A stretch of 64,000 nt of DNA from NCBI GenBank assembly GCA_963708075.1, contig OY970194.1, positions 3,616,001-3,680,000 of the forward strand, given 5' to 3'. Shown piece after piece: positions 9,553 through 61,490 of the stretch. A model generated the notes under the pieces. It was given only the letters and a program-made list of their open reading frames with translations. It ran no database searches and was not told the origin of the DNA. Source of the stretch: Sedimentisphaerales bacterium. Its GTDB lineage: Bacteria > Planctomycetota > Phycisphaerae > Sedimentisphaerales > Anaerobacaceae. The position numbers and the translations under genes are program-made. Numbering within the stretch: position 1 is the stretch's first letter; every line of letters begins with the position of its first letter.

Positions 9553-10100
9553 TGTGAAACAAAGCCAATTGCGGGCCGGGGCTCTGGGATTGCGGATTGT
9601 CGATTGCGGAGTGCGGATTGAAGGACGGATGCCGGCAATGACACACATGCGCGGCGCGCAGAACGAGGCCAATTCGGCACGCCGGGGTCGGCCGCGAAAC
9701 AAAGCCAATTTTGGGAAGGATAGGTTATCTGGGAACAATAGAACATTGCGTGCGGGGCAGTCCCACCGCGAGCAGCCTTTGCGAAATAAAGCCAATTGCC
9801 ATGGCAAGACAAGGCCGAGACGGCCTCGCCACGCGGCTCCCGGCGAGTTGTGCGAAACAAAGCCAATCTATTGGCAGAGGGCAGCAGGCGAGAGGCGGCA
9901 GGCTGAAGGAAACTGCACGGATGACTCTGCGAAACAAAGCCAACTGGAGAGGCTGGAATTAACCCTAAGTCCTTTGTGGTAAAGCGGTTACGTTCAATTC
10001 CGCGAGAATGCGAAACAAAGCCAATTCCCGGACCGGGCTGCTGGCAGGCAATCCGGGGCGAGCGGGGACGCCGGCCCTGCTGCGCGAAACAAAGCCAACT
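9553..10100 (+). repeat. interspaced array 1: 8 copies of 18-nt (T/C)GCGAAACAAAGCCAA(T/C)T
   Basis: Copies start at 9553, 9657 (degenerate), 9693, 9780, 9851, 9928, 10009, 10083; spacers 86, 18, 69, 53, 59, 63, 56 nt. Confidence 0.95.
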
Positions 10101-10117
10101 GGCGGATGAGCGATATC

Positions 10118-10165
10118 AAAAAGCACGCCGGTCGAGGCGGGAGAGCTTTCCTGCCTCGACCGGCG
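10118..10165 (-). terminator. long GC-rich hairpin/terminator between array 1 and the GEVED gene
   Basis: CGCCGGTCGAGGCGGGA-loop-TCCTGCCTCGACCGGCG; A-run at 10118-10122 gives a U-tail on the minus strand. Confidence 0.7.
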
Positions 10166-10219
10166 GTGGGTTGCGTATTCGGTTCGGACCCGCAGAGCAC
10201 GCGGGGCCCCGGCGTTTTG

Positions 10220-12421
10220 TTACTTGGCCGGAGGTCTCTCGAAGGTGTTCCAGGCGACGCCTTCCGACTTCCACACCGCAGGCTGGCGCTCCAGCGTCAG
10301 TCTCTCAGTTTCGCTCATGGTATAGATGTGGCGATTCAGGCTGGCGGACCAGAAGCGATAGACGGGCTTTGTCCCGGCGGCCTTACTCTCCGGCGGGTAG
10401 GCGTAGAACACGATGCCTTCGTACTTCCACACGGTAGGAAAGTCGCGAATCAGTGAGGCCTTCTCAGTCTCGCTGATCGTGTAGAAGTATGCGTTATTCT
10501 TCGCGGAATAGAAGCGGTAGATCGGCGCCAGATTGGGATTGCCGGACTGTTGTCCGCCCTGATTCGTCAGTAATTCGAAGGCAAGGTCCCACTTGGTACC
10601 CCTGGGGTACTCGACAGACTCCCCCGCCAGCCAGCGGGCGCCGATGACCGGAGGCCAGGAGCCGGTGGATGAGCTGCCGGCGGCGACCTGTGAGACACGG
10701 GCTGCGGCGTTGTTGAAGGAGTACGGCCGGGTCGTCCAGCCCCATGGATTCAAAGGCGTGGGTGCACCCGTGTCATAAACGGCGGCGATGCTCAGCCAGT
10801 AAACGGTGGGCACCGATGCGCCGGTGGACCCGGTTGTCGGACTTTGATAGAACCATTCGTCCTGAGACAGCAGGCAGGTGAACTGGAAGCAGGTTTCGCC
10901 GCGATTGATCCCCCGCGGGTCGTCATCCTGCCCCGCCAGGTTCCACGTCCAGTGCGTACAATACGTCTCCCAGAGGAGGGTATTGGGGTGATTCGAATCG
11001 GCGGTCTTTCCGGGCGCATCCGTCCAAATGCCGATATGGAAAGCCAGCGGCTGCACGGACGGCAGCATGGGCTTGGTCCAGCTCTGGAAGGAGCCCCACC
11101 ACTGGAACCCCGTGATCGGCCGCTCATCGGTGCACTGCCAGTCATCGGCGTTGATCTGATGCAGATGCAGGCCGGAGACCTCGTCCCATCCACGGAATAT
11201 GAATGGCGTGGCGGCATCGGAACTCTGGGCCGGCTGGCTCCATTTGAGACCTCCCTTGCCGGCATTGGTTTGCGGCTCAAAGTCGCGCACCGCGGAAACC
11301 TTGTAGTCCTCCACCTCGCCATCCTGCGCCGGACCATAATAGGGCAACAGGCCCCGGGTGTTGAAACGGAACCTTGCATAGGTATCGCCGGGGGCAACGG
11401 TTGCCGGAATGCGGAAGGAAAGGTGGTTTACGCCGCTCCTGAGCAGCACATCCTCGAATATCTGCTCATCCCTGCCATCGAAACTGCCATCGCCGTCGAA
11501 ATCCATCCACGCATTCAGATAGCCCTGGACAGAGGCCGTCACGTCAATGGTGGCGGTTTCCCCGGGCGACAGGCTGCTGGTGAATTGAACTCCATCCTCG
11601 TCGTCGCGATCGTCGTCATCGCCGGTGGCGGACGCGGTCGGCCTGCCGTTGGACTCGGTGTCGACGCCGGCTCCCAGGTAGACCCCGGCGGAGACCAGGT
11701 GCCGGGCTCCATTGCTGGCGAGGGTAGTTCCATAGGAATCGGGAGCATCGCCATAGTCCTGCTGTGTCGGCTGCTGGGTGCCTCCGTCAGAGTCGCCGCC
11801 TTTGGCCCGGCATTCGCGCATGACCCCGCGATGGATATCGACGTTCCTTCCGCGGATATCGATCGAGACCCAGTCCGGGTTGTACTGCCCGATCGTAAGC
11901 TCCTTGTTTGGCTCCACGGATCCGGGGTTCTCCGGATTTCCTAGGAATACACTGTCGAGGGCCTGGAACTCCTCGCTGTCCATATACTTGGCTTCATCGC
12001 TTTCCGTCGGCGCATCGTCCGGCAAGGGGGGCCGGTTGCGGCCGAGTTGGGACCACTGCGGCGTAGCCCAATTGAAGCGGACATCGAAAGACACGCTTCT
12101 GGCGTAGTCGTTAGCCGTGATGAACACCCTGTAATATAGCAATCCTTCCCGATCGGGGCTGTACGGCTCGTTGTAGAACCACTGTCTCCAGCATCCGCTG
12201 GCAGGGTAATAATACCACGTGCCGCCGCCGTAACCGTCGCCCTCGCCCTGCACGTAGTCACCATTGTGATCCAGGACAATGCGGAAGAAAGAGCCCGGAA
12301 ACGCGCTCGGGTCTATCTCGAAGATCAAGTCGCGCGAATCGGCCCGGGCGGTGGAGCAGAAAAACGCGAGAATGAGGAACAGCAGCCATATCGGCAGTGG
12401 TCTGGATTGCGACTCGTTCAT
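10220..12421 (-). CDS. secreted multidomain protein with GEVED domain and C-terminal DUF5648-like repeat
   Basis: RBS AAGGAG before ATG 12421; signal peptide; DYGDAPDSYGT...DDEDGV...NAWMDFDGDG...GEVEDY; C-terminal PIYRFYS..FYTISETEK..WKYEGIVFYAY. Confidence 0.85.
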   Translation of the reverse strand: MNESQSRPLPIWLLFLILAFFCSTARADSRDLIFEIDPSAFPGSFFRIVLDHNGDYVQGEGDGYGGGTWYYYPASGCWRQWFYNEPYSPDREGLLYYRVFITANDYARSVSFDVRFNWATPQWSQLGRNRPPLPDDAPTESDEAKYMDSEEFQALDSVFLGNPENPGSVEPNKELTIGQYNPDWVSIDIRGRNVDIHRGVMRECRAKGGDSDGGTQQPTQQDYGDAPDSYGTTLASNGARHLVSAGVYLGAGVDTESNGRPTASATGDDDDRDDEDGVQFTSSLSPGETATIDVTASVQGYLNAWMDFDGDGSFDGRDEQIFEDVLLRSGVNHLSFRIPATVAPGDTYARFRFNTRGLLPYYGPAQDGEVEDYKVSAVRDFEPQTNAGKGGLKWSQPAQSSDAATPFIFRGWDEVSGLHLHQINADDWQCTDERPITGFQWWGSFQSWTKPMLPSVQPLAFHIGIWTDAPGKTADSNHPNTLLWETYCTHWTWNLAGQDDDPRGINRGETCFQFTCLLSQDEWFYQSPTTGSTGASVPTVYWLSIAAVYDTGAPTPLNPWGWTTRPYSFNNAAARVSQVAAGSSSTGSWPPVIGARWLAGESVEYPRGTKWDLAFELLTNQGGQQSGNPNLAPIYRFYSAKNNAYFYTISETEKASLIRDFPTVWKYEGIVFYAYPPESKAAGTKPVYRFWSASLNRHIYTMSETERLTLERQPAVWKSEGVAWNTFERPPAK

Positions 12422-13114
12422 GAATAAGCTCCTTAAGGCAGTTTTCCTTTGGGTGATGTCCCATCCATGGCAAGACGCGTTCTGCTGTCCGAACACACAT
12501 CCTGTGCGGAACGCCGGTATGGAATCGGCGTTTGACTGACCCTCCTCCAGAAAATCAGTGGCACATGCGCGAGACCTCTCTCCGTAGGGGTCCTCCAACC
12601 GGCTGGTGCCGATAATATACGGCGACAGCGATTGGAAATCAAGTGCCAGGAACGCACTTTTGGTAACGGAAATAACCGGAAATCCGGAAACTTTTCTGGA
12701 GCGACCCTCATGGCAAAGGCGAGGCCTCCGGACGCGATGCAGGTGATGTCGGCCATCAGCAGATGCTTGGGTGCCCAAGGCTGCCACACGTCCGAAAATA
12801 TGATTCCAACTGGACTTACGAGTGCTGACGGTGTAGATTGAAGGCATCCTGCCCCACTGGCGGCCGGCCGACAGAGGAGCAGCATCGCTCTCGGGGGATG
12901 CTTCCCTTGGTTTATCAGTTCGCAGTCAGGCATGATATAGAGATGCCCGGGCCGGACAGTATTTCTGTGTCTTGGATACGAGCGGATCGGTACGCAACAG
13001 CCGGCCTGCGGAAGGTCCGATATGCAAGTGCCCGCAAGGGCAAACGCAGTACGGGTCTTGTGCGTACGTAGAAGATCGAGCGGCTGAAAGCCGCGGAGAC
13101 AGAAGGATGTGACT

Positions 13115-20870: not shown

Positions 20871-20997
20871 GATTTACAGTTTACCACTTTACGGATGTCA
20901 TCGCAGGCTGAAGCTGACAGCCTATGACGGTATTTGTATGTTGGTTTGCAGTTGTTACGCAGCCAAATCGTAAATCGTAAATTGTAAATAGTAAATC
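20871..20997. repeat. inverted 7-mer periodic arms (GATTTAC / GTAAATC)
   Basis: GATTTAC AGTTTAC CACTTTAC ... AAATCGT AAATCGT AAATTGT AAATAGT AAATC; same family at 47632-47745. Confidence 0.75.
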
Positions 20998-21001
20998 CCA
21001 T

Positions 21002-22375
21002 ATGGAAAACCTTCTGAAAAGTCCCAGTTTGATCCAGAGGGCGTATTGGCTCATTCGATTGCGGTGGGTGGCGATTGCAGTTCTAGCTATTGCCACGTTT
21101 ATCTCTCACGAGCTGATGGATGTATCCCTCGCCGCCCCGGCGCTGTATGCTCTTGCCGCCACATTGGTTGTCTACAACTTCATTCTCCTCAGCCTGTTGC
21201 GGTACTGGACGCGGCGAGATGAACAGGGGCCCGGGAACGGCACCACTGCGCCCGCCGCCCACTCAGCGGTCGAGGGAATCATCACGTTTCAGATCTCCGC
21301 GGATTTGCTGATCCTCGCCACCATCCTGCACTTTTCCGGCGGCATCGAGAATCCGTTCTCCTTCTTCTTCGTCTTTCACATGATCATCGCCAGCATCCTG
21401 CGGTCCAAGCGGCAGAGCTATCTGCAGGCGACGTTGGCAGGCCTCCTGTTCGGGGGGCTGGTCCTTCTCGAAGGCGCCGGAATCCTCAGGCATCACGGCC
21501 TGGTGGGTTTTGCCGGGCACGATCTCTACCGGAGCGGCACGTTTATCTTTGGCTTTCTCTTTACCTTCGTCGTCACGCTGTACCTCGTCGTTTACATGAC
21601 TACCTCCATCAGCGAGCAGCTCCGCCTCCAGCAGGAGGGCCTGGAGAAGGCCAACGCGCAACTCGAGGAGAAAGACCAGGTCAAAAACGAATACGTGCTT
21701 CGCGTGACGCATGACATCAAGGGGCATCTGGCCGCCGTGCAAAGCTGCCTGGATACCGTTATCAGTGGGATGGTCGGGCCGCTCAACGAAAAGCAGAAGG
21801 ACATGGTCGGCAGGGCCCACCGGCGAACGACCAAGTGCATGGAATTCATCACCGCCCTGCTGAAATTGACCCGAATGAAGCTGACGGGACAACTTGACAG
21901 GGAGCGATTCTCGCTGCGCAAGACCCTCCTCAGTGCCCTGGCCCTCGTCCAAAACAGGGCCCAGAGCAAGTCCATCGTCCTGAATCATCACATCGATCCG
22001 GCGATTGACATGATCGATGGGGAAGCTGTCCTCATCGAAGAGACGATCACGAACATCCTTCTCAATGCCGTCAAATACACTCCTGCCGGTGGACGGGTGG
22101 GAATTGAGGCGAAGCAGGATGGCGCGTTCGTCCAGATGAAAATCACCGATACGGGCATCGGCATCCCTCCGGCCGACCTGACGCGAATCTTCGAGGAGTT
22201 CTACCGGGCCGACAACGCACGTGCGGCCGAGCGGGACGGAACGGGCTTGGGACTGGCCTTTGCCAAGCAGGTGGTCGAGCGCCACGGCGGCCGAATCTGG
22301 GCCGAGAACAACCCCACCGGCGGCAGCACCTTCACCTTCACGCTGCCGAGCCACCCCAGCGAGCCCAATTCGTAG
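21002..22375 (+). CDS. membrane-bound sensor histidine kinase
   Basis: Several TM helices; H-box THDIKGHL, N-box NILLNAVKYT, DTGIGI, GTGLGL. Confidence 0.95.
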   Translation: MENLLKSPSLIQRAYWLIRLRWVAIAVLAIATFISHELMDVSLAAPALYALAATLVVYNFILLSLLRYWTRRDEQGPGNGTTAPAAHSAVEGIITFQISADLLILATILHFSGGIENPFSFFFVFHMIIASILRSKRQSYLQATLAGLLFGGLVLLEGAGILRHHGLVGFAGHDLYRSGTFIFGFLFTFVVTLYLVVYMTTSISEQLRLQQEGLEKANAQLEEKDQVKNEYVLRVTHDIKGHLAAVQSCLDTVISGMVGPLNEKQKDMVGRAHRRTTKCMEFITALLKLTRMKLTGQLDRERFSLRKTLLSALALVQNRAQSKSIVLNHHIDPAIDMIDGEAVLIEETITNILLNAVKYTPAGGRVGIEAKQDGAFVQMKITDTGIGIPPADLTRIFEEFYRADNARAAERDGTGLGLAFAKQVVERHGGRIWAENNPTGGSTFTFTLPSHPSEPNS

Positions 22376-22554
22376 CCCCTTTGGTCACACAGCAATTTCC
22401 GCCAGAGTGACACCTTTTCCTCTTGACTTTCAGGACAGAAGGCGGATAAAATTCGTGTGCTGTGGGTTACCAGGGAACACGTACGGCTCCGGCCTCGCCG
22501 GGCCGATCAGACCGTGCGTACTCAATCTACCTCAACCTGTGAAGGAGAAGGAGA

Positions 22555-25125
22555 ATGAAGAAGCACGCATTCCTCGCGGTGAGTTCAATTCTGTTGGTTT
22601 CTGTTTGTCTCTGGGCTGGACAATTCGCACGGGATGCGTGGTCGGCGCCGAGCGACGGGGCGGGCCCCGACGACACGGCGGCGGAGTATGCCCTGACGGC
22701 CGGCGGCGATGAGCCGGCCCGAGGCACGATTCTCTTCGAGTACTATTGGGGCGCTGACGGCACCATAAGCTCACTGGAAAGCCTGCCCACCTTCCCGAAC
22801 TACCCGGACGACCGGGAGTGGCGGACCAGTTTGGAGGGTCCGACGGACTGGAGAGACCACTATGTCACCTACGTGCGCGGGTACCTCTATCCCCCCGCGA
22901 CGGGCAATTACACCTTCTGGATTGCCAGCGACGACCAGAGCCAACTGTGGCTGAGCACGGATGAAACCCCTGGTCATGCCGTGCAGATTGCCAGCGTGCT
23001 GGTTTGGACACCTGCCCGAGATTTCGACAATACCGGGGGCGGGGCCGGCGGTCCTCAACAGAAGTCCGCCCCCATCCGGCTGACGGCCGGCAAGAGGTAC
23101 TACATTGAAGCCTTGCAGGCCGAAGGTATTGGTGGCGACAACCTAGCCGTGGCTTGGCAAGGGCCCGGCATTCCCAACCGAACCATCATCGCAGGCAAGT
23201 ATTTGTCCCCTCTCATTGGGCCGCAAGACGTGACGGATCCGAATCTCCTCGGTTGGTGGAAGCTGGATGAGACCTCCGGGATGACTGCGGCCGATGCATC
23301 CGGCAACGGGCACGATGGCGCGATCCAGGGGACGCCGACCCGGGTGGATGGCCCGCCCGGATTCGGCAAGGCTCTGCACTACAATGGCCAGAACCCGGCG
23401 TCCGGGTGGGTCAACTGTGGTACGTGGAACCCCTCCGCTGCCACAGGCCAGTTGACCGTGACCTTCTGGGCCAAATGGGCGGGCCCTGTAGGACCGAACA
23501 ACTGGCAGGGCGTGGTCGGCAAACGCAATGACTGGGACTCGACCGGCGCCAATCAGATGTGGGAGTTCGAGATCGACGCCACCAACAACCAGATTCGTTT
23601 CTTCCGCGGTGACAGCTATCCGAATTGCGGCGGGCGCATTCTGCCCATCGGCGAATGGACGCATGTAGCCGCGACGTTCGACGGCGCGACGCTGGTTTTC
23701 TACATCGACGGCCAGGAGACCGGCCGGGGTGCTTTCTCCTTCGGACCTACGACCGATGCCATGATCACCATCGGTTGCGACGACTCGTTCGGCTGGAACA
23801 GCTTCAATGGGGCACTGGATGATGTGCGGATCTACGACCGGGCCCTGTTGCCGGGCGAGATCCGGTGGCTGACGGGTTTGTTCCAAGGGGAATACTTCGC
23901 CAACATGACCCTCTCGGGCAGTCCGGCCCTGACTCGTCTCGATCGAGAAATCAACTTCAACTGGGGCACCGGCGAGGTCTTCCCGGGCACTTCCGACTGG
24001 TGTTCGGTCCGATGGACCGGCGAAGTGGAGCCGGCATTCACGGAGCCGTACACGTTCTATGTGAACGCGGACGATGGTGCCCGGCTGTGGCTGGATGACG
24101 ACCTGATCATCGATGCCTGGCAAGACCAGGCGGCTACCGAGTATGCGAGCCAGCCGATCCCGCTTGTCGCCGGACAGAGGTATCATATCCGATTGGAATG
24201 GTATGAGAATGGCGCCGAGGCGGTCTGCGAGCTGCGCTGGTCGAGCCCGTCCACGCCCAAGCAGGTGATCCCATCAGGCCGGCTGCACCCGCCGGAGCCA
24301 GGCTCAGGTGGTGGCACAAGTAGTGGAAGTGCAAGCATGACCTTGAAGCCCACCAGCGGACCAGTGGGTACTGTGATAGCGATTACCGGTAGCGGCTTTG
24401 CGGCCAACACGTCCGGCAACGTGATCTCCCCGTGGGTCTCCAAGTTACTGACGACGACCCCGGACGGCGCCTTCTCGACAACAGTAACCGTGCCCGAGAA
24501 GACGCCGGGAGGCGATTACCCCTTTGCAGCGGATTTCCCGCTCGGCGGGATCGAGGAAGCTTTGGCCACCTTCACCGTGACTGGGAGCATCACCCTGAAT
24601 CCCGCCAGTGGACACGTGGGCGACGCGATAACGATCACGGGCACTGGGTTTGCGGGAAGTGCTTCCGGCAACGTGATCTTCGCGGGTGTAAGCCAGCCCG
24701 TAACGACGGCCCCGGACGGCACGTTCTCAACGACCATGACAGTACCGACAGTGCCGGCGGGGAACCACTCAGTGCAGGCCGATATCCCGTCCGGCACACC
24801 TCCAGAGGCTTCCGCCGTCTTCGAAGTTGTCCCAAAGATAACCTTGACGCCAAGGACCGCACGCGTGGGTCAAAAGGTTACGATCACTGGGACCGGTTTC
24901 CAGGAACGGATTGGCGGGAGCGTGTTCTGTGATGTGAACGGCAACGGGCGATACGACTCCGGAGAGCCAAGCATTAGTGTGACGACGACACTTTATGGTA
25001 TGTTCACAGGGTACTGGAATGTGCCTGCGGGAACGCCGCCTGGACTCTATGACATCCTCGCTGATTGCCCCATCGGATCACCCATAGAAGATTCGGAGAC
25101 TCTCGTAGTTGTTGCTGGCCCGTGA
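22555..25125 (+). CDS. secreted PA14-LamG-PA14-Ig-like multidomain protein (copy A)
   Basis: Signal peptide; PA14 (GNYTFWIASDD), LamG (WTHVAATFDG..LDDVRIYDRAL), second PA14 (ADDGARLW), IPT-like ITGSGF repeats. Confidence 0.9.
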   Translation: MKKHAFLAVSSILLVSVCLWAGQFARDAWSAPSDGAGPDDTAAEYALTAGGDEPARGTILFEYYWGADGTISSLESLPTFPNYPDDREWRTSLEGPTDWRDHYVTYVRGYLYPPATGNYTFWIASDDQSQLWLSTDETPGHAVQIASVLVWTPARDFDNTGGGAGGPQQKSAPIRLTAGKRYYIEALQAEGIGGDNLAVAWQGPGIPNRTIIAGKYLSPLIGPQDVTDPNLLGWWKLDETSGMTAADASGNGHDGAIQGTPTRVDGPPGFGKALHYNGQNPASGWVNCGTWNPSAATGQLTVTFWAKWAGPVGPNNWQGVVGKRNDWDSTGANQMWEFEIDATNNQIRFFRGDSYPNCGGRILPIGEWTHVAATFDGATLVFYIDGQETGRGAFSFGPTTDAMITIGCDDSFGWNSFNGALDDVRIYDRALLPGEIRWLTGLFQGEYFANMTLSGSPALTRLDREINFNWGTGEVFPGTSDWCSVRWTGEVEPAFTEPYTFYVNADDGARLWLDDDLIIDAWQDQAATEYASQPIPLVAGQRYHIRLEWYENGAEAVCELRWSSPSTPKQVIPSGRLHPPEPGSGGGTSSGSASMTLKPTSGPVGTVIAITGSGFAANTSGNVISPWVSKLLTTTPDGAFSTTVTVPEKTPGGDYPFAADFPLGGIEEALATFTVTGSITLNPASGHVGDAITITGTGFAGSASGNVIFAGVSQPVTTAPDGTFSTTMTVPTVPAGNHSVQADIPSGTPPEASAVFEVVPKITLTPRTARVGQKVTITGTGFQERIGGSVFCDVNGNGRYDSGEPSISVTTTLYGMFTGYWNVPAGTPPGLYDILADCPIGSPIEDSETLVVVAGP

Positions 25126-25139
25126 TGTGGAGGATGGCA

Positions 25140-27740
25140 ATGAAAAGACATGCATTTCTCGCAGTGAGTTCAATTCTGTTGGTCTCTGTTGGTCTTTGGG
25201 CTGGACAGTTCGCACAGGATGCGTGGCCGGCGCCGAGCGACGGGGCGGGCCCCGACGACACGGCGGCGGAGTATGCCCTGACGGCCGGCGGCGATGAGCC
25301 GGCCCGAGGCACGATTCTCTTCGAGTACTATTGGGGCGCTGACGGCACCATAAGCTCACTGGAAAGCCTGCCCACCTTCCCGAACTACCCGGACGACAGG
25401 GAGTGGCGTGCCAGTTTGGAAGGGCCGACGGACTGGAGAGACCACTACGGCACCTACGTGCGCGGGTACCTCTATCCCCCCGCGACGGGCAATTACACCT
25501 TCTGGATTGCCAGCGACGACCAGAGTCAGCTATGGCTGAGCACGGATGAAACCCCTGGTCATGCCGTGCAGATTGCCAGTGTGCCGGCGTGGACTCCGCC
25601 CCGTGATTTCGACAATACCGGGGGCGGGCTCGGCGGTCCTCAACAGAAGTCCAGTCCCATCCCCTTGACGGCCGGCAGGAGGTATTACATCGAGGTCCTG
25701 CACGCCGAAGGGATTGGTGGCGACAACTTGGCCGTGGCGTGGCAAGGGCCGCGCATTCGCGACCGAAGCATCATCACCAGCGAATACTTGTCCCCCATCA
25801 CTGGGCCACAAGACGTGATCGATCCGAACCTTATCGGCTGGTGGAAGATGGAAGAGGGTTCGGGCACCGCAGTACAAGATTCTTCCGGTCATGACCAGCA
25901 CGGCACAATCTACAACAGCAACGCCGGCCTCGGCCCAAACGGAGCCGTTTGGGTCAGCGACCCCGAACGCGGCACTGTCCTGAGCTTCGATGGCGATGAC
26001 GCCACCGGCGCTTACGTCGATGCCGGAACCATTCCGGCCATGGACCTCGCCGGCGGCTTCACCTGGACCTTCTGGGCCAGGCAGGATGCGGCCCAATCGA
26101 CCGCAGTGCCGGGTGGGGGCAATGATGTCATGCTCGGCAACCGTTTTGGCGGCACCGAGACTCCCCTGCAGTTCGTCAAGTTCACCCCCACGAAGTTCGA
26201 GTACTTCAACGACTTCGACTTAATGGCGATTGACTACCAGGACCTCCCGGGCAGGCAGTGGGTCCATCATGCCGTGGTCAAGAAAGGGGCGACGCTCACG
26301 TACTATCGCGACGGGGTCGAGGCCGGGACCAGAACCCTGACCAAGACGATGGATGAGAACCCGTTCTTCATGGGTGGTGACGCCGGCGGGGAACGCTGGC
26401 GAGGCTCACTTAGCGATGTCCGCATTTACGACCGTGGCCTCTCAGCCACCGAGATCCGGGCGTTGATTCACGGCGTGCGAGGCGAGTACTTCACCAATAT
26501 GACCCTCTCCGGCAGCCCGGCCCTGATCCCTATCGATCCTCAAATCTACTTCAACTGGCCCGGCGAGGTCTTCCCGGGCACTTCCGACCAGTGTTCCGTC
26601 CGATGGACCGGTGAGGTGGAGCCGGCATTCACGGAACCGTATACGTTCTATGTGAACACGGACGATGGCGCCCGCTTGTGGTTGAACGGCAACCTGATCA
26701 TCGATGCGTGGTGGGACCAGGGTGCCACCGAGCACGCCGGCCAGCCGATCCAGCTTGTCGCCGGACAGAAGTATCCCCTTCGGCTGGAATGGTATGACAA
26801 CACGCTCAGCGGGACCTGCGAGCTGCGATGGTCGAGTCCCTCCACGCCGAAGCAGGTGATTCCCTCCGCCCGGCTGCACCCGCCGGAGCCAAGTACAAGT
26901 GGTGGCACAAGTAGTGGCAGCTCAAGCATAACCTTGAAGCCGACCAGTGGACCAGTGGGTACTGTGATAGCGATTACCGGTAGCGGCTTTGCGGCCAACA
27001 CGTCCGGCAATGTGATCTCCCCGTGGGTCTCCATGTTGCTGACCACGACCCCGGACGGCACCTTCTCGACAACAGTGACCGTGCCCGAGAACACGCCGGG
27101 AGGCGATTGCCCCTTCGCGGCGGATTTCTCTCTCGGCGGGCCGGAGGAAGCCTCGGCAACCTTCATCGTGACCGGGAGCATCACCGTGAGCCCCACCAGC
27201 GGACCTGACTATACGTGGATAACCATTACCGGCAGTGGCTTTGCACGTGCCACCGGTACTGTGTTCTTTGACAACGACCGCGATGGCATCCTTGATCCGG
27301 GTGAGCCAAGCCAGTCCATGATGGCGGGGACCGACGGGACCTTCTCCGGGGTAACCCTGCCTGTGCCCGATGTGGCGGGGGGCACCTACCCGGTCGAGGC
27401 GGACATCCCGTCCGGCGGGTCTGTAGAGGCTGAGGCAACCTTCACCATGACGACACGTATGTGGTTGGGCCTCAGCGAGGGACACGCGGGCTCTAAGATG
27501 TTGACTGCAGGATCCGGCTTCGCGGCAAACACGTCCGGGATCGCGTTCATTGATTTGAACCACAACGGGCGACATGACCCCCTCGAGCCAAGCGAGTCTC
27601 TGACGACGGAGTCGAACGGCAGTATCTGGACGTTCCTGACGGTGCCCCCAAAAACGACGCCAGGACAGTATGATTTCATGGTGGATTGCCCCATCGGCTT
27701 ACCCATAGAAGAGTCGGCGACTTTCACGGTTCTGCCGTGA
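25140..27740 (+). CDS. secreted PA14-LamG-PA14-Ig-like multidomain protein (copy B)
   Basis: Same architecture as copy A; near-identical N-terminus; RBS GGAGG before ATG 25140. Confidence 0.9.
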   Translation: MKRHAFLAVSSILLVSVGLWAGQFAQDAWPAPSDGAGPDDTAAEYALTAGGDEPARGTILFEYYWGADGTISSLESLPTFPNYPDDREWRASLEGPTDWRDHYGTYVRGYLYPPATGNYTFWIASDDQSQLWLSTDETPGHAVQIASVPAWTPPRDFDNTGGGLGGPQQKSSPIPLTAGRRYYIEVLHAEGIGGDNLAVAWQGPRIRDRSIITSEYLSPITGPQDVIDPNLIGWWKMEEGSGTAVQDSSGHDQHGTIYNSNAGLGPNGAVWVSDPERGTVLSFDGDDATGAYVDAGTIPAMDLAGGFTWTFWARQDAAQSTAVPGGGNDVMLGNRFGGTETPLQFVKFTPTKFEYFNDFDLMAIDYQDLPGRQWVHHAVVKKGATLTYYRDGVEAGTRTLTKTMDENPFFMGGDAGGERWRGSLSDVRIYDRGLSATEIRALIHGVRGEYFTNMTLSGSPALIPIDPQIYFNWPGEVFPGTSDQCSVRWTGEVEPAFTEPYTFYVNTDDGARLWLNGNLIIDAWWDQGATEHAGQPIQLVAGQKYPLRLEWYDNTLSGTCELRWSSPSTPKQVIPSARLHPPEPSTSGGTSSGSSSITLKPTSGPVGTVIAITGSGFAANTSGNVISPWVSMLLTTTPDGTFSTTVTVPENTPGGDCPFAADFSLGGPEEASATFIVTGSITVSPTSGPDYTWITITGSGFARATGTVFFDNDRDGILDPGEPSQSMMAGTDGTFSGVTLPVPDVAGGTYPVEADIPSGGSVEAEATFTMTTRMWLGLSEGHAGSKMLTAGSGFAANTSGIAFIDLNHNGRHDPLEPSESLTTESNGSIWTFLTVPPKTTPGQYDFMVDCPIGLPIEESATFTVLP

Positions 27741-29547: not shown

Positions 29548-29629
29548 AACCGCAAACACAGGACCGCCGGCCTAACCATTTGGCAACGTCCCACATTCTT
29601 GAGATTGGGCCTGTGCAAGCTACGCAGAC

Positions 29630-29709
29630 GGGTGGCAGCGTCAAGGCCGAAGGCCTTGGCGATGGCGAATGGGCAAACCATCGCCAAGCTGCGCTTGACG
29701 ATGCCACCC
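29630..29709 (+). repeat. GGGTGGCAGCGTCAAG.. ~80-bp palindromic element
   Basis: Nearly identical to 52109-52188 and to the reverse complement of 63456-63537. Confidence 0.9.
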
Positions 29710-29755
29710 AAAACTCGAGAACTCGGCATGTTGCCAATTATTTTGGGAGACAGCA

Positions 29756-44787: not shown

Positions 44788-47631
44788 ATGGTTGATCATA
44801 CAGAGAAAGTCATTCGGGTCGAGGGTGCCGCCGAGCACAACCTGAAGAATATCAGTCTGGACATCCCGCGCGACAAGCTCGTGGTCATCACGGGCATCAG
44901 CGGCTCGGGCAAAAGCTCGCTGGCGTTCGACACGATCTACGCCGAGGGCCGGCGCAAGTACGTCGAATCGCTCAGCGCGTATGCGCGGCAGTTCCTGGAG
45001 CAGATGCAAAAGCCCGCGGTCAACGAGATCTCGGGCCTGCCGCCGACGATCGCCATTGAGCAGCGAAGCGCCAGCAGCAACCCGCGCTCGACGGTGGCGA
45101 CGACCACGGAGATCTACGACTACTTCCGGCTGCTCTTCGCCCGGGTAGGTCAGCCTCACTGCTGGGTCTGCGGCCGGGAAATCACCAGCCAGCACTCCTC
45201 GCAGATCGTCGAGTCGATCCTCACCCGGCCGGAAGGGACCAAGATTCAGGTCTGCGCCCCCCTGATCCGAGGCAAGAAGGGCGAGCACAAGGATATCTTC
45301 GCCAACATTCAGCGGGAGGGATTCGTCCGCGTCCGCGTCGATGGCTCCGTATATGACCTGCGAAACGCGCCCACCCTGAACAAGAACAAGAAGCATGACA
45401 TCGCTGCCGTCGTGGACAGGCTGATCATCCGCGAAGGCGTCAGCATCCGCATGGCGGACTCCGTCGAGACCGCGCTGAAGCTGGCCGATGGAATCCTGCT
45501 CGTGCTCCTCCAGGAGCCTGGGGCCGAAAAAGGCGGCGAAGGCGACGGCAAATGGGAAGAGGCGATCTACAGCGAGAAATTCGCCTGTCCTGAGCACCCG
45601 GAGGCGAGCCTGGAAGAGCTCTCGCCGAGACTGTTCAGCTTCAACAGCCCGTATGGAGCGTGCAAAAGCTGCGATGGGCTCGGCACCATCCTGGAGTTCG
45701 ACCCCGATCTCATTGTGCCCGATAAGAGCGTTTCGCTCGAAAGTGGGGCCGTGGACGCCTGGCGCCGTAGCGGCAAGCGAATGAACATCTACTACAACCG
45801 CCTGGTCAAGCGGTTCTGCCGCGATACCGGGATCAGCAAATCCATCCCCTACGAAGAGATCCCGAAGGATGTCCAGCGGATACTGATGTACGGCACGACC
45901 GAGGAGGACGAAGAGAAGCACGGCGTGTGGTTCGAGGGGGTCATCCCCAACCTGGATCGACGCTGGAAGAACACCACGAGCGAGTACGTCAAGACGCGGC
46001 TGCACGGGTACCTGTCGGAGCAACCCTGCCAGGCGTGCCACGGCGCGAGGCTTCGGCCGGAAGCCATCGCCGTGACCGTCGGAGGCATGAACGTCCAGGC
46101 GCTGGCTCGCCTGAGCGTCGAGAATGCCCAGCGGTTCTTCAACGATCTCAAGCTCGACAAGGAGCAGACGATTATCGCCGCCCAGATCCTCAAGGAGATC
46201 AAGGCCCGGCTGCAATTCATGATGGACGTCGGGCTCGGCTACTTGACGCTGGACCGCATGAGCAGCACGCTGGCCGGGGGCGAAGCCCAGCGTATCCGGC
46301 TGGCCACCCAGGTCGGCAGCGGCCTGGTCGGAGTCTGCTATGTGCTCGATGAGCCGACCATCGGCCTGCACAAGCGGGACAACGACCGGCTCCTGGGCAT
46401 CCTGCAAAAGCTCAGCCAGATCGGCAACACGGTGCTGGTCGTCGAGCACGACGAGGACATCATGCGTGCCGCCGACCATATCATCGATATCGGCCCGGCG
46501 GCCGGGGCGCATGGCGGCGAGCTTCTCGTACAAGGCACCATGGAGGACATCATCAAGTGCGAGCGGTCGCTCACCGGCGAGTACCTCAGCGGCAAAAAGA
46601 GTATCGCCGTACCTGCGAAGCGACGCTCGTACAGTCTGAAAAAATGCATCGAAGTCAAGGGGGCCGCAGAGCACAATCTCAAAGAGATCGATGTCAAGTT
46701 CCCACTTGGCGCGTTCATCTGCGTCACCGGCGTCTCCGGCTCCGGCAAGAGCACGCTCGTCAATCACATCCTCGTGCGAGCCCTGAAACGCCACCTGTAC
46801 CAATCCCGCGAGAAGCCGGGCACACACAAGAACGTCCTCGGAATCTCGCAGGTCGACAAGGTCATCGAGATCGACCAGTCGCCCATCGGCAAGACGCCGC
46901 GAAGCAACCCCGCGACCTACACAGGCGCTTTCGATCTGATCCGCAAGCTCTTCGCGATGACGCGCGAGGCCAAGATTCGCGGCTACACCGCCGGTCGGTT
47001 CAGCTTCAACGTCAAGGGCGGCCGCTGCGAGTCCTGCCGCGGCCAGGGCACCAAAAAGATCGAGATGCACTTCTTGCCCGACGTTTACGTCACCTGCCAG
47101 AGCTGCAAGGGCACCCGGTACAACCCGGAGACCCTCCAGATCACGTACAAGGGCAAGAACATCGCCGACGTGCTCGACATGCGGATTGAGGATGCGGTGG
47201 ATTTCTTCGCCAATTTCCCGACGATTGTCCGGGTCCTCAAAACGCTGACCGAGGTCGGGCTGGGCTATATGCAGGTCGGCCAGTCCTCGACGACACTCTC
47301 GGGCGGCGAGGCCCAGCGGGTGAAGCTCTCGGCCGAGTTGGGCAAGGCGGCGACCGGCCACACGCTCTACATCCTCGATGAGCCGACGACCGGCCTGCAC
47401 TTCGCGGACATTCACAACCTTCTGAACGTCTTGCAACGGCTGTGTGACATGGGCAATACCATCATCGTCATCGAACATAACCTTGATGTCGTCAAGACGG
47501 CGGATTATATAATAGACCTCGGTCCCGAGGGTGGTGACGCCGGTGGAACGGTCGTGGCCGCCGGGACGCCTGAGGAAATTGTAAAGAATCCGAAAAGCTA
47601 TACGGGCAGGTTCCTCAAAGCGAAGCTTTGA
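44788..47631 (+). CDS. uvrA: excinuclease ABC subunit A
   Basis: HNLKNI, TGISGSGKSSLAFDTIYAEG, zinc fingers, LAGGEAQRIRLA, second ABC module LSGGEAQRVKL, LDEPTTGLH. Confidence 0.98.
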   Translation: MVDHTEKVIRVEGAAEHNLKNISLDIPRDKLVVITGISGSGKSSLAFDTIYAEGRRKYVESLSAYARQFLEQMQKPAVNEISGLPPTIAIEQRSASSNPRSTVATTTEIYDYFRLLFARVGQPHCWVCGREITSQHSSQIVESILTRPEGTKIQVCAPLIRGKKGEHKDIFANIQREGFVRVRVDGSVYDLRNAPTLNKNKKHDIAAVVDRLIIREGVSIRMADSVETALKLADGILLVLLQEPGAEKGGEGDGKWEEAIYSEKFACPEHPEASLEELSPRLFSFNSPYGACKSCDGLGTILEFDPDLIVPDKSVSLESGAVDAWRRSGKRMNIYYNRLVKRFCRDTGISKSIPYEEIPKDVQRILMYGTTEEDEEKHGVWFEGVIPNLDRRWKNTTSEYVKTRLHGYLSEQPCQACHGARLRPEAIAVTVGGMNVQALARLSVENAQRFFNDLKLDKEQTIIAAQILKEIKARLQFMMDVGLGYLTLDRMSSTLAGGEAQRIRLATQVGSGLVGVCYVLDEPTIGLHKRDNDRLLGILQKLSQIGNTVLVVEHDEDIMRAADHIIDIGPAAGAHGGELLVQGTMEDIIKCERSLTGEYLSGKKSIAVPAKRRSYSLKKCIEVKGAAEHNLKEIDVKFPLGAFICVTGVSGSGKSTLVNHILVRALKRHLYQSREKPGTHKNVLGISQVDKVIEIDQSPIGKTPRSNPATYTGAFDLIRKLFAMTREAKIRGYTAGRFSFNVKGGRCESCRGQGTKKIEMHFLPDVYVTCQSCKGTRYNPETLQITYKGKNIADVLDMRIEDAVDFFANFPTIVRVLKTLTEVGLGYMQVGQSSTTLSGGEAQRVKLSAELGKAATGHTLYILDEPTTGLHFADIHNLLNVLQRLCDMGNTIIVIEHNLDVVKTADYIIDLGPEGGDAGGTVVAAGTPEEIVKNPKSYTGRFLKAKL

Positions 47632-47745
47632 GATTGATGATTTACGATTGACGATTTACGATTTGGCTTTGCCGGCCGAACGTAGTCACGCGAACCAACG
47701 CGACATGCCTGCAAATCGTAAATGGTAAATCATAATTCGTAAATT
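47632..47745. repeat. inverted 7-mer periodic arms (GATTTAC / GTAAATC)
   Basis: GATTGAT GATTTAC GATTGAC GATTTAC GATTT ... AAATCGT AAATGGT AAATCAT AATTCGT AAATT. Confidence 0.8.
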
Positions 47746-47796
47746 CCAGGAGGTGGCAAGATAGAAGCCGCACAGCCCCGACAGTGGGAATTTCAG

Positions 47797-51272: not shown

Positions 51273-52058
51273 ATGAATATAGATGCCACGCTCACCACGC
51301 TCCTGCGTGATGGTTTCATTCTCGTTTTCAACCAGGACAAGCTCGACATCGTCAAGACGGCCGAGGCCCTGCTGGCGGCGGGGATCAACAACATGGAGGT
51401 CACCTGCCGGATCAGCCGGCCGCTCGAGAAACTCTCGCGGCTCCGCAAGGAGTTGCCCGATTTCGTGGCCGGCTCGGCCAGCCTCATCGATTGGCCCGGC
51501 ATGCTCGCCGTCTACAACGACGCGCACCGCGACGATCCCCTGCCCACTCTTCAGCAGGTGGTCGATGCCGGGGCCTGCTACCTCGTCTCGGCGGTCAATT
51601 TCAGCGACGCGAGTCTCCACAAGTTCGCAGGCAAGGTGCCGATGATCCCGGGCTGCGGCAGCGCCACGGAAGTCGTGACGCAGTTCGGCAAAGGCGCGAA
51701 CCTGTGCAAGGTCTTCCCCGCCCAGGAGTTGGGCGGTCCGGCGTTTGTCAAGGCAATCGATCCGGCCATTCACAAGACGATCAGCCTCGTGCCCACGGGG
51801 GGCACCACCGCGGCGAATATCCCCGACTACATCGACGCCGGCGTCCTCGTCCTCGGCGGCTCGTTCAGCATGATCGACAAGGCAAAGATGCAGAAGATCG
51901 TGGACGAGCAGGACTATAAGCTGCTGGCCGGCGAGCTTACACAGATCAAGCAGCTTATCGACCGGCTGCGCGCGGCCAAGTACCGCGGTCTCGATTTCGC
52001 AAGCGCCTCCATCGAGCAGATCAGCACGAAGACCGGCCGCAACTTCAACGTCGCTTGA
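51273..52058 (+). CDS. KDPG/KHG aldolase family protein
   Basis: MEVT, IPGCGSATEV, KVFPA..LGG, LVPTGG. Confidence 0.82.
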   Translation: MNIDATLTTLLRDGFILVFNQDKLDIVKTAEALLAAGINNMEVTCRISRPLEKLSRLRKELPDFVAGSASLIDWPGMLAVYNDAHRDDPLPTLQQVVDAGACYLVSAVNFSDASLHKFAGKVPMIPGCGSATEVVTQFGKGANLCKVFPAQELGGPAFVKAIDPAIHKTISLVPTGGTTAANIPDYIDAGVLVLGGSFSMIDKAKMQKIVDEQDYKLLAGELTQIKQLIDRLRAAKYRGLDFASASIEQISTKTGRNFNVA

Positions 52059-52108
52059 GAACTCATACCAACTACAGTTGAGTTTTTCGTAATACGGAAC
52101 AGCAATCC

Positions 52109-52188
52109 GGGTGGCAGCGTCAAGGCCGAAGGCCTTGGCAATGGCGAATGGGCAAACCATCGCCAAGCTGCGCTTGACGCTGCCACTC
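52109..52188 (+). repeat. GGGTGGCAGCGTCAAG.. ~80-bp palindromic element
   Basis: Near-identical to 29630-29709. Confidence 0.9.
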
Positions 52189-52234
52189 AAGATGCCAAAT
52201 GCTCAGGAGAAATCGGTATCAGGAGTGAAATCTG

Positions 52235-57042: not shown

Positions 57043-57073
57043 TCTCTCGCGGATGCACCTATCGAGGATGAGC

Positions 57074-58174
<1,101 letters not shown>

Positions 58175-58205
58175 GTCCTATCGGTCCTATTCGTCCAATT
58201 CCGTC

Positions 58206-58493: not shown

Positions 58494-58573
58494 AGAAATC
58501 TCCAGAAAATGACCGCATACCATTATACGGTCATTGCGGCGATTAGCCAACTACCATTCATACCGTTTTCAGG

Positions 58574-60715
58574 TCAGCGAGTTCGCTCCTTTTTCGACTT
58601 GCCCGGCTGACGGCCGGCTGCCGTTTGTCCGCTCAATTCATCGACGAGGCGGTCGGCTCGATAGACCTTTCGCAGGGCTTCGAGGATCGACGCCGAATGG
58701 ACCGACACGGCCCGGGCCTCCTTCTCCGTATAGGTGAAATCGAGGACCAGCGACTGGATGTTGCCGTCGAAGATGATCCCGACGAACTCTCCCTTGCGAT
58801 TGACGACGGGGCTGCCGGAGTTGCCGCCGATGATGTCCGCCGTCGAGACGAAGTTGAAAGGCGTCTTGAGGTTGAGCTTGCTCTTCTGCTTGAGCCAGAG
58901 CTCGGGCAGCTCGAATGGCGGCTGGTTACCCTGCTCCTGGGCACGCTCGTAAAGGCCGGCAAAAGTCGTCCACGGCGGAATCTGCTTACCCTGCTCCGTG
59001 TAGCCCTTGACCTCCCCGAAGGCCAGCCGCAGCGTGAACGTGGCATCGGGATAGATGTCCGTTCCATAAATGGCGAATCTCGCGTTCGCCAGCTTCGCGT
59101 AAGCCTGGCGCATCGGCTCTTCAACCTGCTCCTCATACGTCTTTCGCAAGTCCCTTGCCGGCTCATTCACGAGCAGGGCCAGTTGGATCATGGGGTCTTT
59201 CGACTGGCGAATCCCTTCCGGTTTCTGCGCCGCCAGCTCCTTGCGGAATGCGACATCCTTGAGCTTCGTGCCATTGATGAGCTCTGCCGCCCGATCCCGC
59301 GGCGACTTGCCTCCGAGCACGTCCTTGACCAGCGGATCGCCCGGCCCTTTCATCTCCACGAATCTCATCAACGAATCGGCCAACAGGATCGTTTCCAAGT
59401 CCTCGTAGATCGGGGCCTCCGAGAACAGCTCGAACTTGAGCGACTCAAGATTCGATTCGCGGTACTCACGCAGCCGCTCGGGATTCGGCTTGGCCGACTC
59501 GTCGGCCAATCGCACCAACGTCCGGGCAATGCCAAAAAGACGGGTGCTGAAGGCGGACCCCTGTTCCAGCAGGTCCCAGTCATAGTAGATCCCGTCCCAG
59601 GTTTTCAGAGCGGCGGCCACATCGGCCCACGGATCGCCGACGGGCTCCTTAAGCTGCGAGCCCTTCTCCTGGATGGCCCCGCGGAGTTTCTCCTCTTCCG
59701 CGCGTTTGCGATCCATGATGGCAGGGTCCTGGAGTCCGGCGAGCATGCCGAGCCGGGCCTTGCGGCTGTTCTGGACGCCGAACAGGTCGTCCTGTGCGCG
59801 GCGGGCGTTCTCCCGGCTCTCGGCACTGTAGGCGGACAACATGACCTCCGCGCGGAACAGCCTTTGCAGCCGGTATGGGAAAACCTTGTCGCGGAGGAAC
59901 TCGATGTGCGCCATGGTGTCGAGCCGGTCGGTCCGACCGGGATGGCCCGAGACGAATACCAGCTCGCCATCGCCCGCGCCCTTCGGGCTCCACTTCAGGT
60001 AGTGCTCGATCCTGGCGGGCTTGCCATCCTCGTACACGCGGAACAGGCAGATATCAAGGTCGTAGCGGGGATACTCGAAGTTGTCCGGATCGCCGCCGAA
60101 GAAAGCGATGTCCTTTTCGGGCGCGAAGACCAGTCGAACGTCGGTGTACTTCTTGAACCGGTAAAGGTGGTACATGCCGCCGTGATAAAGCGTCACGACA
60201 TCGCTCCGCAGCCCTGTCTTATCGAGCGATTCCTTCTCGACGGTGTTCATCGCCGCCCGGCGGGCCTGGTTGGCCTCGGCCGGGGTCATCTCCGGCTTGA
60301 CCGCTGCGTTGATCCGCTCGGTCACGTCCTCGATGTTCTGCAGCACGTTCAGCTCCAGGTCCACGCACCGGACCTCCTCCTGCAAGGTCTTGGCGTAGAA
60401 GCCCAGGGCGATCAAGTCTTTTTCTTTGGTGCTCAGCTTCTGCAGACAGTCGGCGCCGACGTGGTGATTCGTCAGCACCAGCCCATCGGCGGAGACGAAC
60501 GAACCCGACCCGCCGCTATTGAAGCGAACGCTGGACCGCTGCAAGTGGGTATACCACTCCTGCCCCGGGGCGAAATTGTACTTCTCCTTGAGCAGCTTTT
60601 CCGGCGGATTGTTGAACAGCCACATCCCTTCATCCGCCGGCGCCTCGGTCGGGATCAGGCAGATCATCACAGTCATCGGGAGAATCGGACACATCCATCT
60701 GGTCAGGTGATTCAT
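58574..60715 (-). CDS. S46 family dipeptidyl peptidase
   Basis: DEGMW, GSGSFVS, LTNHHV, DVRLVFAP, FGGDPDNFEYPR, YPDATFTLRL, DIIGGNSGSP, FDGN. Confidence 0.95.
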   Translation of the reverse strand: MNHLTRWMCPILPMTVMICLIPTEAPADEGMWLFNNPPEKLLKEKYNFAPGQEWYTHLQRSSVRFNSGGSGSFVSADGLVLTNHHVGADCLQKLSTKEKDLIALGFYAKTLQEEVRCVDLELNVLQNIEDVTERINAAVKPEMTPAEANQARRAAMNTVEKESLDKTGLRSDVVTLYHGGMYHLYRFKKYTDVRLVFAPEKDIAFFGGDPDNFEYPRYDLDICLFRVYEDGKPARIEHYLKWSPKGAGDGELVFVSGHPGRTDRLDTMAHIEFLRDKVFPYRLQRLFRAEVMLSAYSAESRENARRAQDDLFGVQNSRKARLGMLAGLQDPAIMDRKRAEEEKLRGAIQEKGSQLKEPVGDPWADVAAALKTWDGIYYDWDLLEQGSAFSTRLFGIARTLVRLADESAKPNPERLREYRESNLESLKFELFSEAPIYEDLETILLADSLMRFVEMKGPGDPLVKDVLGGKSPRDRAAELINGTKLKDVAFRKELAAQKPEGIRQSKDPMIQLALLVNEPARDLRKTYEEQVEEPMRQAYAKLANARFAIYGTDIYPDATFTLRLAFGEVKGYTEQGKQIPPWTTFAGLYERAQEQGNQPPFELPELWLKQKSKLNLKTPFNFVSTADIIGGNSGSPVVNRKGEFVGIIFDGNIQSLVLDFTYTEKEARAVSVHSASILEALRKVYRADRLVDELSGQTAAGRQPGKSKKERTR

Positions 60716-60843
60716 GGTGATTCCTCCTTAACTCACTCAATTGTCAAAGGGGCCTGCGTACCCCCCTATTCCACCCACATTATCATAATCAGCCACCCCA
60801 GTCCACTTTCTCCACGGAAACTCGCCTTCATCCAGCCCCCTGA

Positions 60844-61490
60844 AATTGGCTTTGTTTCGCACGACAGGTTCTTGGCCGTCTTGCAGGGCGGGCCATACCT
60901 ACCATCTGTCCGGCAGAGCAAATTGGCTTTGTTTCGCACAGTCGCGTCCCCACTCACCCGAGGTCGCCTGTCCCGTCCTCGGAATTGGCTTTGTTTCGCA
61001 GACCAGTCCAGCATGTGGAATTGGCTTTGTTTTGCGCGCCCGCCCATGTCCGCCACTGCCGGCATTCGCCCCTATTCCGCATTCCGCACTCCGCATTCTC
61101 AGGTTCCTGGCCCCGAATTGGCTTTGTTTCACAAGATCACCCATGCGGTTCACTCCTACCCGCTGCCCGCTGCCTGTCCCCGCCTTAGCAATTGGCTTTG
61201 TTTGGCGCGACCGGGCCACCCAGGAATTGGGTTTGTTTTGAATACTGCGCGTCGGCTTCCTGCAACCCAGCATTTCCCACTCCCGAACCAGGGTTTCCAT
61301 AAATTGGCTTTGTTTCGCAAGGTAGGGCGAGCGTCCCCGCTCGCCCCCGATTGCCGTCCAGGCCCGACCCCGAAATTGGCTTTGTTTCGCACGCCTGCCC
61401 ATGTTGGTGTTGCCGATATCCGCCTTTCATTCCGCACTCCGCATTCCGCATTCCCACGGCCCCCCGGCCCGTAATTGGCTTTGTTTCGCC
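60844..61490 (-). repeat. interspaced array 2: 10 copies of the same 18-nt motif (AATTGGCTTTGTTTCGCA on +)
   Basis: Copies start at 60844, 60921, 60983, 61019, 61116, 61190, 61225, 61302, 61374, 61473; spacers 59, 44, 18, 79, 56, 17, 59, 54, 81 nt. Confidence 0.95.

Follow-up and report, generated by a model that had tools for sequence, protein, structure and literature searches.

The nearest described analogue of the arrays reported here is the Neisseria intergenic mosaic element (NIME), in which a 20 bp repeat, dRS3, alternates with spacer families of 30-160 bp in dispersed intergenic arrays of 200-2700 bp; as far as PMC3898611 describes them, dRS3 has been proposed as the target of a recombinase and an integrase has been proposed to recombine the repeats. 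We analyzed a stretch of 64,000 nucleotides from a Sedimentisphaerales bacterium (GCA_963708075.1, contig OY970194.1, positions 3,616,001-3,680,000 of a 7.5-Mb single-contig genome, labelled G000:C1), called the window below, which holds two arrays of direct 17-nt repeats and variable spacers: array 1 at 9554..10100 on the plus strand and array 2 at 60844..61489 on the minus strand. Arrays of this kind have a distinct layout, a link to one gene family, units that are reassorted singly, a cargo of host repeats and a patchy presence among genomes. In our reading they make up the 3' portion of a small element, either selfish or domesticated, that has one gene and whose protein would recognize the repeat as a cassette boundary; we put the chances of this reading at about even. 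Both window arrays are gene-less copies, array 2 on direct evidence and array 1 probably.

The arrays work like NIME, in that a short repeat takes turns with families of spacers and the arrays are scattered over the genome, but they lack the palindrome by which NIME is defined: dRS3 has 6-bp terminal inverted repeats, ATTCCC(N8)GGGAAT, in the description of PMC3898611, and the repeat here is asymmetric, polar and unrelated. Unlike NIME, they also have a conserved promoter leader, a putative origin in a one-gene element, and spacer cores resembling repetitive extragenic palindromes (REP) of the host. Dispersed intergenic mosaics with gene-bearing masters and many gene-less copies are likewise known from REP, bacterial interspersed mosaic element (BIME) and REPIN-RAYT systems, as outlined in PMC3733652. 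REP and BIME sequences are here the cargo of the spacers (GTAG-type hairpins) and not the frame; the array repeat forms no hairpin and carries no GTAG/CGTC tag, and the REP pieces are single and one-way, in contrast to the inverted pairs of REP, BIME and REPIN. Unlike RAYT, the product of the element's gene is no HUH (Y1) transposase, judging from its helical hairpin model and the absence of any Pfam or NCBIfam family for three copies.

A promoter leader, a polar repeat-spacer array and spacers matching other DNA are also features of CRISPR arrays. CRISPR repeats measure 24-48 bp, according to PMC3733652, and CRISPR spacers are regular in size and non-repetitive. A CRISPR identity was rejected on the 17-nt repeat and on spacers that range from 15 to 165 nt (coefficient of variation 0.41), are reused in 167 of 252 cases and match repeats of the same genome (107/225). 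No match to cas1 (PF01867) was found in the single-contig genome, which is 92.8% complete. Integron cassette arrays resemble the arrays in that single units are reassorted and the promoter-proximal position is special. They were rejected as well: the repeat is non-palindromic, nothing like a folded attC site is present, the arrays have no neighboring integrase, and the cassettes are without genes. A search of the open literature gave no published description of the gene-plus-array element, though one may exist in subscription papers or supplements, and a term search of PMC6344855 gave no mention of these taxa. The element is thus apparently undescribed, and the mosaic layout alone has the Neisseria analogue.

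Layout and reassortment of units

The 17-nt repeat has the consensus GCGAAACAAAGCCAATT, from which 16 of the 18 repeats in the window arrays differ by at most one mismatch. Its 12-nt core, with up to two mismatches, matches 20 times in the window against 2.35 by chance, and 17 of these matches lie inside the two arrays. Array 1 contains eight repeats, starting at 9554, 9658 (degenerate), 9694, 9781, 9852, 9929, 10010 and 10084. The ten repeats of array 2 start at 61489, 61390, 61318, 61241, 61206, 61132, 61035, 60999, 60937 and 60860, and a peptidase S46 gene follows about 130 nt past the end of the array. An assembly artefact is unlikely: contigs from two runs of different studies, the first of which may be the source sample, span the last repeat or repeats of array 2 and the start of the S46 gene with 0 and 3 differences, and arrays are present in 7 of 18 genus relatives as counted by exact repeat pairs. 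Joints skipping units that turned up in the same comparison have short sides, may stem from other arrays or organisms, and were set aside.

An initial annotation of the window had claimed that the two arrays share spacers in shuffled order. All 63 pairs of the 7 and 9 spacers were therefore compared, with 1000 dinucleotide shuffles each. Spacer 1 of array 1 (9571..9657, plus strand; class B, a 7-mer run) scored above every shuffle against spacer 1 (61391..61472; z 15.1) and spacer 6 (61036..61115; z 10.9) of array 2 on the minus strand, and so did spacer 7 of array 1 (10027..10083; class G), whose REP-like hairpin core has 70 copies outside arrays, against the class G spacer 2 of array 2 (61319..61373; z 13.5), which carries the same type of core. 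These are the only 3 of the 63 pairs that beat all shuffles, and exactly the three that the annotation had named first. Spacer 1 of array 1 is also 87% identical to a unit in the array at genome position 7,460,330. The resemblance proposed between spacer 5 of array 1 (9869..9928, plus strand; class F) and positions 61134-61189 is not significant among 63 pairs (p 0.042) and reappears at class level. A profile from nine other class F members ranks this spacer and spacer 5 of array 2 (61133..61189, minus strand; diverged class F) first and second among non-training spacers, with 32.8 and 12.1 bits against 8.3 for the best of 500 shuffles, although array 1 spacer 5 had helped to define the class. 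In each array a long class B unit is followed once by a short unit, as had been described (9675..9693 on the plus strand and 61018-61000 on the minus strand; period 36, with 19 nt between 17-nt repeats), and the two short spacers are unlike each other (p 0.95). Throughout the genome a class B unit has such a short successor 7 times, where 2.8 would be expected (p 0.004); both window cases are among the 7. The classes run B..F..G in array 1 and B-G..F-B in array 2 and are not collinear; one simple duplication, or an ancestral order with losses, is ruled out by this order together with adjacency and precedence tests.

A weight-matrix scan of the genome revealed 58 loci, of which 45 have at least two repeats (297 repeats) and 38 at least three. 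Relatives in another array were found for 167 of 252 spacers and for 160 of the 192 with at least 40 nt, and none of 20,000 shuffled spacer pairs reached the same threshold. The related spacers form 14 clusters, eight of them with at least five members. Among 27 gene-less arrays, homologous units also have homologous neighbors in 50 of 924 comparisons, a rate of 5.4% over a background of 4.1%. Adjacencies are shared no more often than by chance (p 0.32), and no consistent precedence is seen once the first unit is dropped (p 0.93). The grain of reshuffling is therefore one repeat with one spacer. In all 24 pairs of units with at least 90% identity a gene-bearing array takes part, and these units travel in blocks (23 of 34 neighbors). 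No more than one class E unit is present in 26 of the 27 arrays (p 0.014); in G013, a second species, the class often appears twice. Unit lengths, which are not independent of each other, show weak helical phasing (at 10.5, Rayleigh p 0.003 for this genome and 0.058 for G013). A strict test places promoters directly downstream of 3 of 38 arrays and in 0.5% of random windows. Other mobile DNA has interrupted one leader and array, at G000:C1:3,463,165-3,465,767, two or more times and split it into three pieces.

The observation in the initial annotation is thus largely confirmed, and its interpretation partly supported. The near-invariance of the repeat beside diverged spacers was borne out, with identities of 0.90 and 0.65, respectively, over 1051 homologous pairs. 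Exchange or duplication of units as cassettes agrees with homology that spans whole units and with the reassortment of single units in the 27 gene-less arrays, and the repeat may be the recombination site that was proposed. The statement that selection acts mainly on the repeat is incomplete: the repeat is more conserved, yet in one spacer class a 25-bp dyad stays at constant distances from the two repeats around it in many genomes, and an open frame is kept in gene-bearing arrays. Uniformity of the repeat could also come from homogenisation. The genome-wide family, the host-repeat source of spacer cores and the linked gene lay beyond what the annotation could draw on.

A gene family linked to the repeat

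Nine of the 45 arrays are preceded by a gene of one unnamed family and 36 lack it, and all nine gene copies (eight whole, one frameshifted) are followed by an array. The resulting element measures 1.2-1.7 kb, in the order 25-bp dyad, promoter, 7-mer run, gene and array. A leader profile built from six gene-bearing copies matches 11 of 36 gene-less upstream regions at E < 1e-12, the best being the type A leader of array 2 (61507..61827, minus strand; E 1.8e-49). This leader contains a dyad (61725-61701), a promoter-like motif TGCAAC-N16-CGTC (61671-61646), which we take to be of the extracytoplasmic function (ECF) sigma type, a 7-mer run and a ribosome-binding site, and a remnant of the first ~13 codons of the gene (61495..61533, minus strand) is fused directly to the first repeat. 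As read from its sequence, array 2 is an element copy from which the gene has been deleted, with the leader, ribosome-binding site and ~13 start codons kept. Array 1 has a different leader, type B, with a putative sigma-70-like promoter (11/12) at 9346..9374 on the plus strand. This motif is common to eight gene-less arrays and is found in no gene-bearing copy of this genome, so we infer the descent of array 1 from the element from the common repeat and spacers. A ribosome-binding site and ATG (9422) read at 9414..9460 on the plus strand are possibly a remnant of the start of the gene, a likeness seen by eye and missed by a pattern search. Inverted 7-mer runs of the kind found in array leaders also occur at window 20961-21014 and 47622-47748.

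The gene family comprises 24,985 relatives among 50%-identity clusters, and close homologues are found under the record titles Sedimentisphaerales, Phycisphaerae or Planctomycetota. The translated repeat was found in the protein tail of 128 of the 150 best homologues, against a mean of 4 and a maximum of 10 in shuffled tails, in a count that included some motif variants. We collected 80 loci from other genomes and dropped five with short flanks; several belong to one and the same genome and cannot count as independent. Downstream of the gene, the repeat occurs at a distance of up to 1.5 kb in 62 of these 75 loci; upstream it occurs in 1 of 58. Loci in which the repeat follows the gene span several phyla, including records titled Bryobacterales, Alphaproteobacteria and Rhodospirillales. 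Within the genus, the gene was found in 21 of 23 other members, with 1-20 matches per genome. Across the phylum, 200 other genomes gave the gene in 13 and the strict repeat-dyad-repeat pattern in one, and exact repeat pairs were found in none of the 12 other families of the order; the system is accordingly patchy. Array 2 itself is a lineage-specific arrival: of the 23 other loci with the S46 peptidase orthologue, 8 were too short, broken or duplicated, and the remaining 15, each from another species and with a flank of at least 800 nt, all lack the repeat upstream of the gene.

The reading frame stays open through all six gene-bearing arrays with at least four repeats, against 4 of 28 gene-less ones, and the six frames share a terminal peptide. 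The repeat is translated in different frames, even within one protein, and in many other genomes a stop precedes the first repeat. This indicates that the repeat acts as nucleic acid.

The protein is predicted to be all-helical with a long hairpin (predicted local distance difference test 89, predicted template modelling score 0.71). Its best fold match (Z 8.2, root-mean-square deviation 4.8, 99 aligned) is a generic helical hairpin, and residues 1-64 are barely tested by it. No sequence match exists in the PDB, and the ESM Atlas gives unnamed clusters only; there is no Pfam or NCBIfam family and no PF05119 hit for three copies of the gene, no PHROG family for 133 members, and no hit for the protein in 50,697 phage records. 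In profile comparison, residues 3-45 match a PF05119 terminase small subunit encoded before large terminase and portal genes (HHalign 97.8%), and the NCBI family 'HGGxSTG domain' matches over 26 columns (91%), with one member preceding a large terminase gene. Terminase small subunits of these families, alongside which the terS of phage satellites serves as a comparison system, have in common with the protein an N-terminal STGP..NAVKHG motif and, as far as its model shows, perhaps also an all-helical structure with a long helical hairpin. Unlike them, it shows no profile match past about residue 45, and no terminase, portal or integrase gene lies beside the array-bearing copies. Distant array-less homologues are located beside tyrosine integrases (two loci) or a primase, which would suggest an origin in satellite-like elements.

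Several further features were observed around the gene copies. Locus L009 (G000:C1:4,778,158-4,780,457) holds the frameshifted copy, with an array split by ~1.2 kb of insertion-sequence-like DNA. L001, L003, L004, L006, L007 and L008 share a common tail after the last repeat (~70 nt in six, ~135 nt in five), and the end of this tail resembles, by eye, the start of their 5' untranslated region. In one family of the phylum, a single-copy homologue has neither the N-terminal motif nor an array (L158:4216-4833, L159:4162-4773, L160, L161 and L165) and lies near fatty-acid-synthesis-like genes, named by eye, in four of the five loci. This array-less single-copy homologue suggests domestication.

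Host repeats in spacers and the repeat-dyad module

The initial annotation had called for spacer searches of the host genome and of phages. With arrays masked, 107 of 225 spacers of at least 30 nt match DNA elsewhere in the genome at a score of at least 20, against 1 of 225 shuffles; neither window array matched any of 50,697 phage records, the scope of the foreign-DNA search, with plasmids and metagenomic viruses outside it. The matched host DNA consists of the cores of dispersed repeat families, each with as many as ~300 hits, and never of a unique locus; the families are GTAG-type hairpins, further palindromes and runs of 7-mers. Spacer 9 of array 2 (60861..60920, minus strand; class C) has such a GTAG-type REP-like core. 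Over 79 spacers from gene-less arrays, a median 48% of the spacer falls within the best match, and ~15 and 16 nt remain at the ends. The 5' ends of spacers are more alike within a class (0.48) than between classes (0.33), and the units have thus spread as wholes. Inside the arrays the cores are oriented one way (97:0, 19:2 and 15:1), although, the units being related by descent, few independent events lie behind these counts. Three copies of a palindromic repeat of 80-100 nt, whose family supplies the core of class D spacers, lie at window 29627-29726, 52108-52190 and 63440-63539.

The second species, G013, was sampled in 20 regions of 20 kb picked around known hits, ~5% of its genome, and these hold 24 arrays with 152 spacers in the same layout. 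Flanking DNA is matched by 23 of 142 of its spacers and by 0 shuffles, and several of the matched families have no good match in the window genome; 115 of the 142 have no counterpart among the spacers of the window genome. In these two species the arrays of each sample its own host repeats, as would follow if pieces of host repeats entered units and then spread.

Class E units contain a 25-bp dyad of the type TAA-N19-TTA, represented in array 1 by positions 9966..9990 (plus strand) within spacer 6. Intervals of 89-92 nt from repeat to repeat make up 27 of 71 in the loci of other genomes. In 44 of 47 units, preselected by this length or by class E, the dyad starts 34-36 nt after the start of the repeat, and the next repeat usually follows 30-31 nt after the dyad. 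The conserved module is thus repeat, 35 nt, 25-bp dyad, 30 nt, repeat, with linkers free in sequence. A similar dyad stands at the head of most leaders, including that of array 2. The dyad is a dispersed family in itself, with window sites at 4397-4421 and 51707-51731, and some of its copies lie before other promoter-like motifs.

In nine loci of other genomes (L049, L050, L053, L054, L057, L059, L064, L069 and L070), a segment of 142-289 nt is bracketed by two copies of the repeat, one inverted and one direct. These segments hold host repeats, have AA and TT directly outside, and lie 30-500 nt after the core of the gene. The same bracket was seen at no array of the window genome and at 0 of 20 arrays of G013. 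Apart from the arrays, the window contains two tandem paralogous large genes (22544-27740) that lie ~2.6 kb apart, are 85-93% alike in parts and have internal 250-nt repeats.

Origin and mechanism of the arrays

If the arrays derive from the one-gene element, the unit of change would be one repeat with its spacer, and units would be excised, inserted or converted singly between arrays. The pattern places unit boundaries at the polar 17-nt repeat, and the chemistry may be as follows. The protein most likely recognizes the repeat, and perhaps the dyad, as DNA through the basic N-terminal motif that it has in common with terminase small subunits. It would organize the site, and a host or mobile-element enzyme acting in trans would cut and join; gene-less copies would be served in trans as well. 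A piece of a host repeat would once have entered a unit and then spread as a cassette, which may account for about half of the spacers.

Several findings weigh against this reading. The terminase-subunit homology covers 26-43 N-terminal residues only in profile comparison, and no catalytic domain or significant fold match was found among viral models and the PDB. No recombinase was found among the 84 longest neighboring frames of 42 array-type loci, 41 of which have no family. The genome encodes four tyrosine recombinases, none of them at the window arrays or among these neighbors, and no cognate integrase is known; the 84 frames include one reverse transcriptase, one Y1 transposase and no recurring partner. 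Five copies, with ends set by eye, show no target-site duplication or terminal inverted repeat. No pair of gene-less units reaches 90% identity (maximum 87%), and recent exchange among gene-less arrays is not seen; such exchanges are therefore old or the units diverge fast. The order of units is not wholly free, as class B comes first in 14 of 27 arrays against 4.7 expected and the B-then-short adjacency is enriched. The dyad is not private to the element, with 85 of 114 genome sites outside arrays (3 control sites vs 30 per 2 Mb); none of the nine gene-bearing arrays of this genome has it, array 2 lacks an internal dyad, and the leader of array 1 has no good one. Finally, two genus members, G006 and G011, both fragmented assemblies, have repeat pairs and no gene match.

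Part of this would be expected of an old element that has become a passive mosaic, an explanation we regard as possible though clearly the less probable. Shuffling would then be ordinary RecA-type conversion and slippage in intergenic DNA that tolerates it and that also receives repeats from REP machineries, and the array repeat would supply homology only, being kept for another reason such as autoregulation. The genome has hundreds of free repeat copies, with 13 Y1/RAYT-like matches and four four-helix-bundle genes over cut-off; besides the missing dedicated enzyme and the age of gene-less units, one-unit tandem duplications are common in gene-bearing arrays. The grain of exchange, a single unit with boundaries at the 17-nt repeat, argues against it, as 17 nt is short for RecA. 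So do the strong polarity of the captured cores, few as the independent events are, and a repeat-dyad spacing that is fixed across distant genomes. That the array is instead a coding device, specifying a hypervariable C-terminal tail and decaying where the gene is lost, appears highly improbable: the frames that stay open in gene-bearing arrays and end in the same peptide fit this idea, but the repeat is read in varying frames or lies after a stop, and it is kept in the 36 arrays without a gene.

The arrays might also act as RNA, which we consider unlikely. The leader promoter would transcribe the array, the repeat would be a handle for protein binding or processing, and the spacers would be guides or decoys for host repeats. 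Polar, promoter-led arrays are indeed kept after gene loss, a constant repeat separates variable spacers that match the same genome elsewhere, species by species, one class sits preferentially beside the leader, and the repeat core is predicted to be mostly unpaired relative to the spacers. The irregular spacer lengths and the partial coverage of spacers by repeat cores speak against guides; array 1 folds no better than its shuffles (z -0.28), the window has no Rfam match at gathering score, and in gene-bearing copies the array lies within a reading frame whose product has no nuclease fold. A widespread Cas-free memory, in which the protein, through a terminase-type DNA-binding motif, and a trans-acting enzyme capture pieces of host mobile repeats as polar, promoter-led cassettes, move these singly from array to array and supply guides or decoys in the form of the transcript, which locate, mark or restrain those repeats, seems to us decidedly doubtful. 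Packaging is improbable: here a derivative of a terminase small subunit from phage satellites would bind the repeats and recruit or block the packaging motor of a helper phage, with the dyad as cut site and dispersed arrays starting transduction or soaking up phage terminase. The N-terminal motif matches two proteins encoded beside terminase-large or portal genes, one of them PF05119 over cut-off, array-less homologues occur in integrase or primase elements, and direct repeats at a fixed distance from a dyad recall cos sites. The match is limited to that motif, though; neither 133 members in PHROGs nor three in Pfam gave a terminase hit, the phage records gave none for the protein, and the shuffling of spacers would go unexplained.

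A family of ~25,000 clusters that is unnamed in Pfam, NCBIfam and PHROGs is now tied to a DNA site, a module of fixed geometry and the shuffling of single units, and its function is directly testable. If the repeat is a site-specific boundary worked by the protein and a partner, this would be a new means of moving short DNA cassettes and changing their order, and if the array is RNA, it would be a new kind of guide array. Even if the mosaic is passive, the association accounts for a large group of 'hypothetical proteins' whose tails are encoded by repeats.

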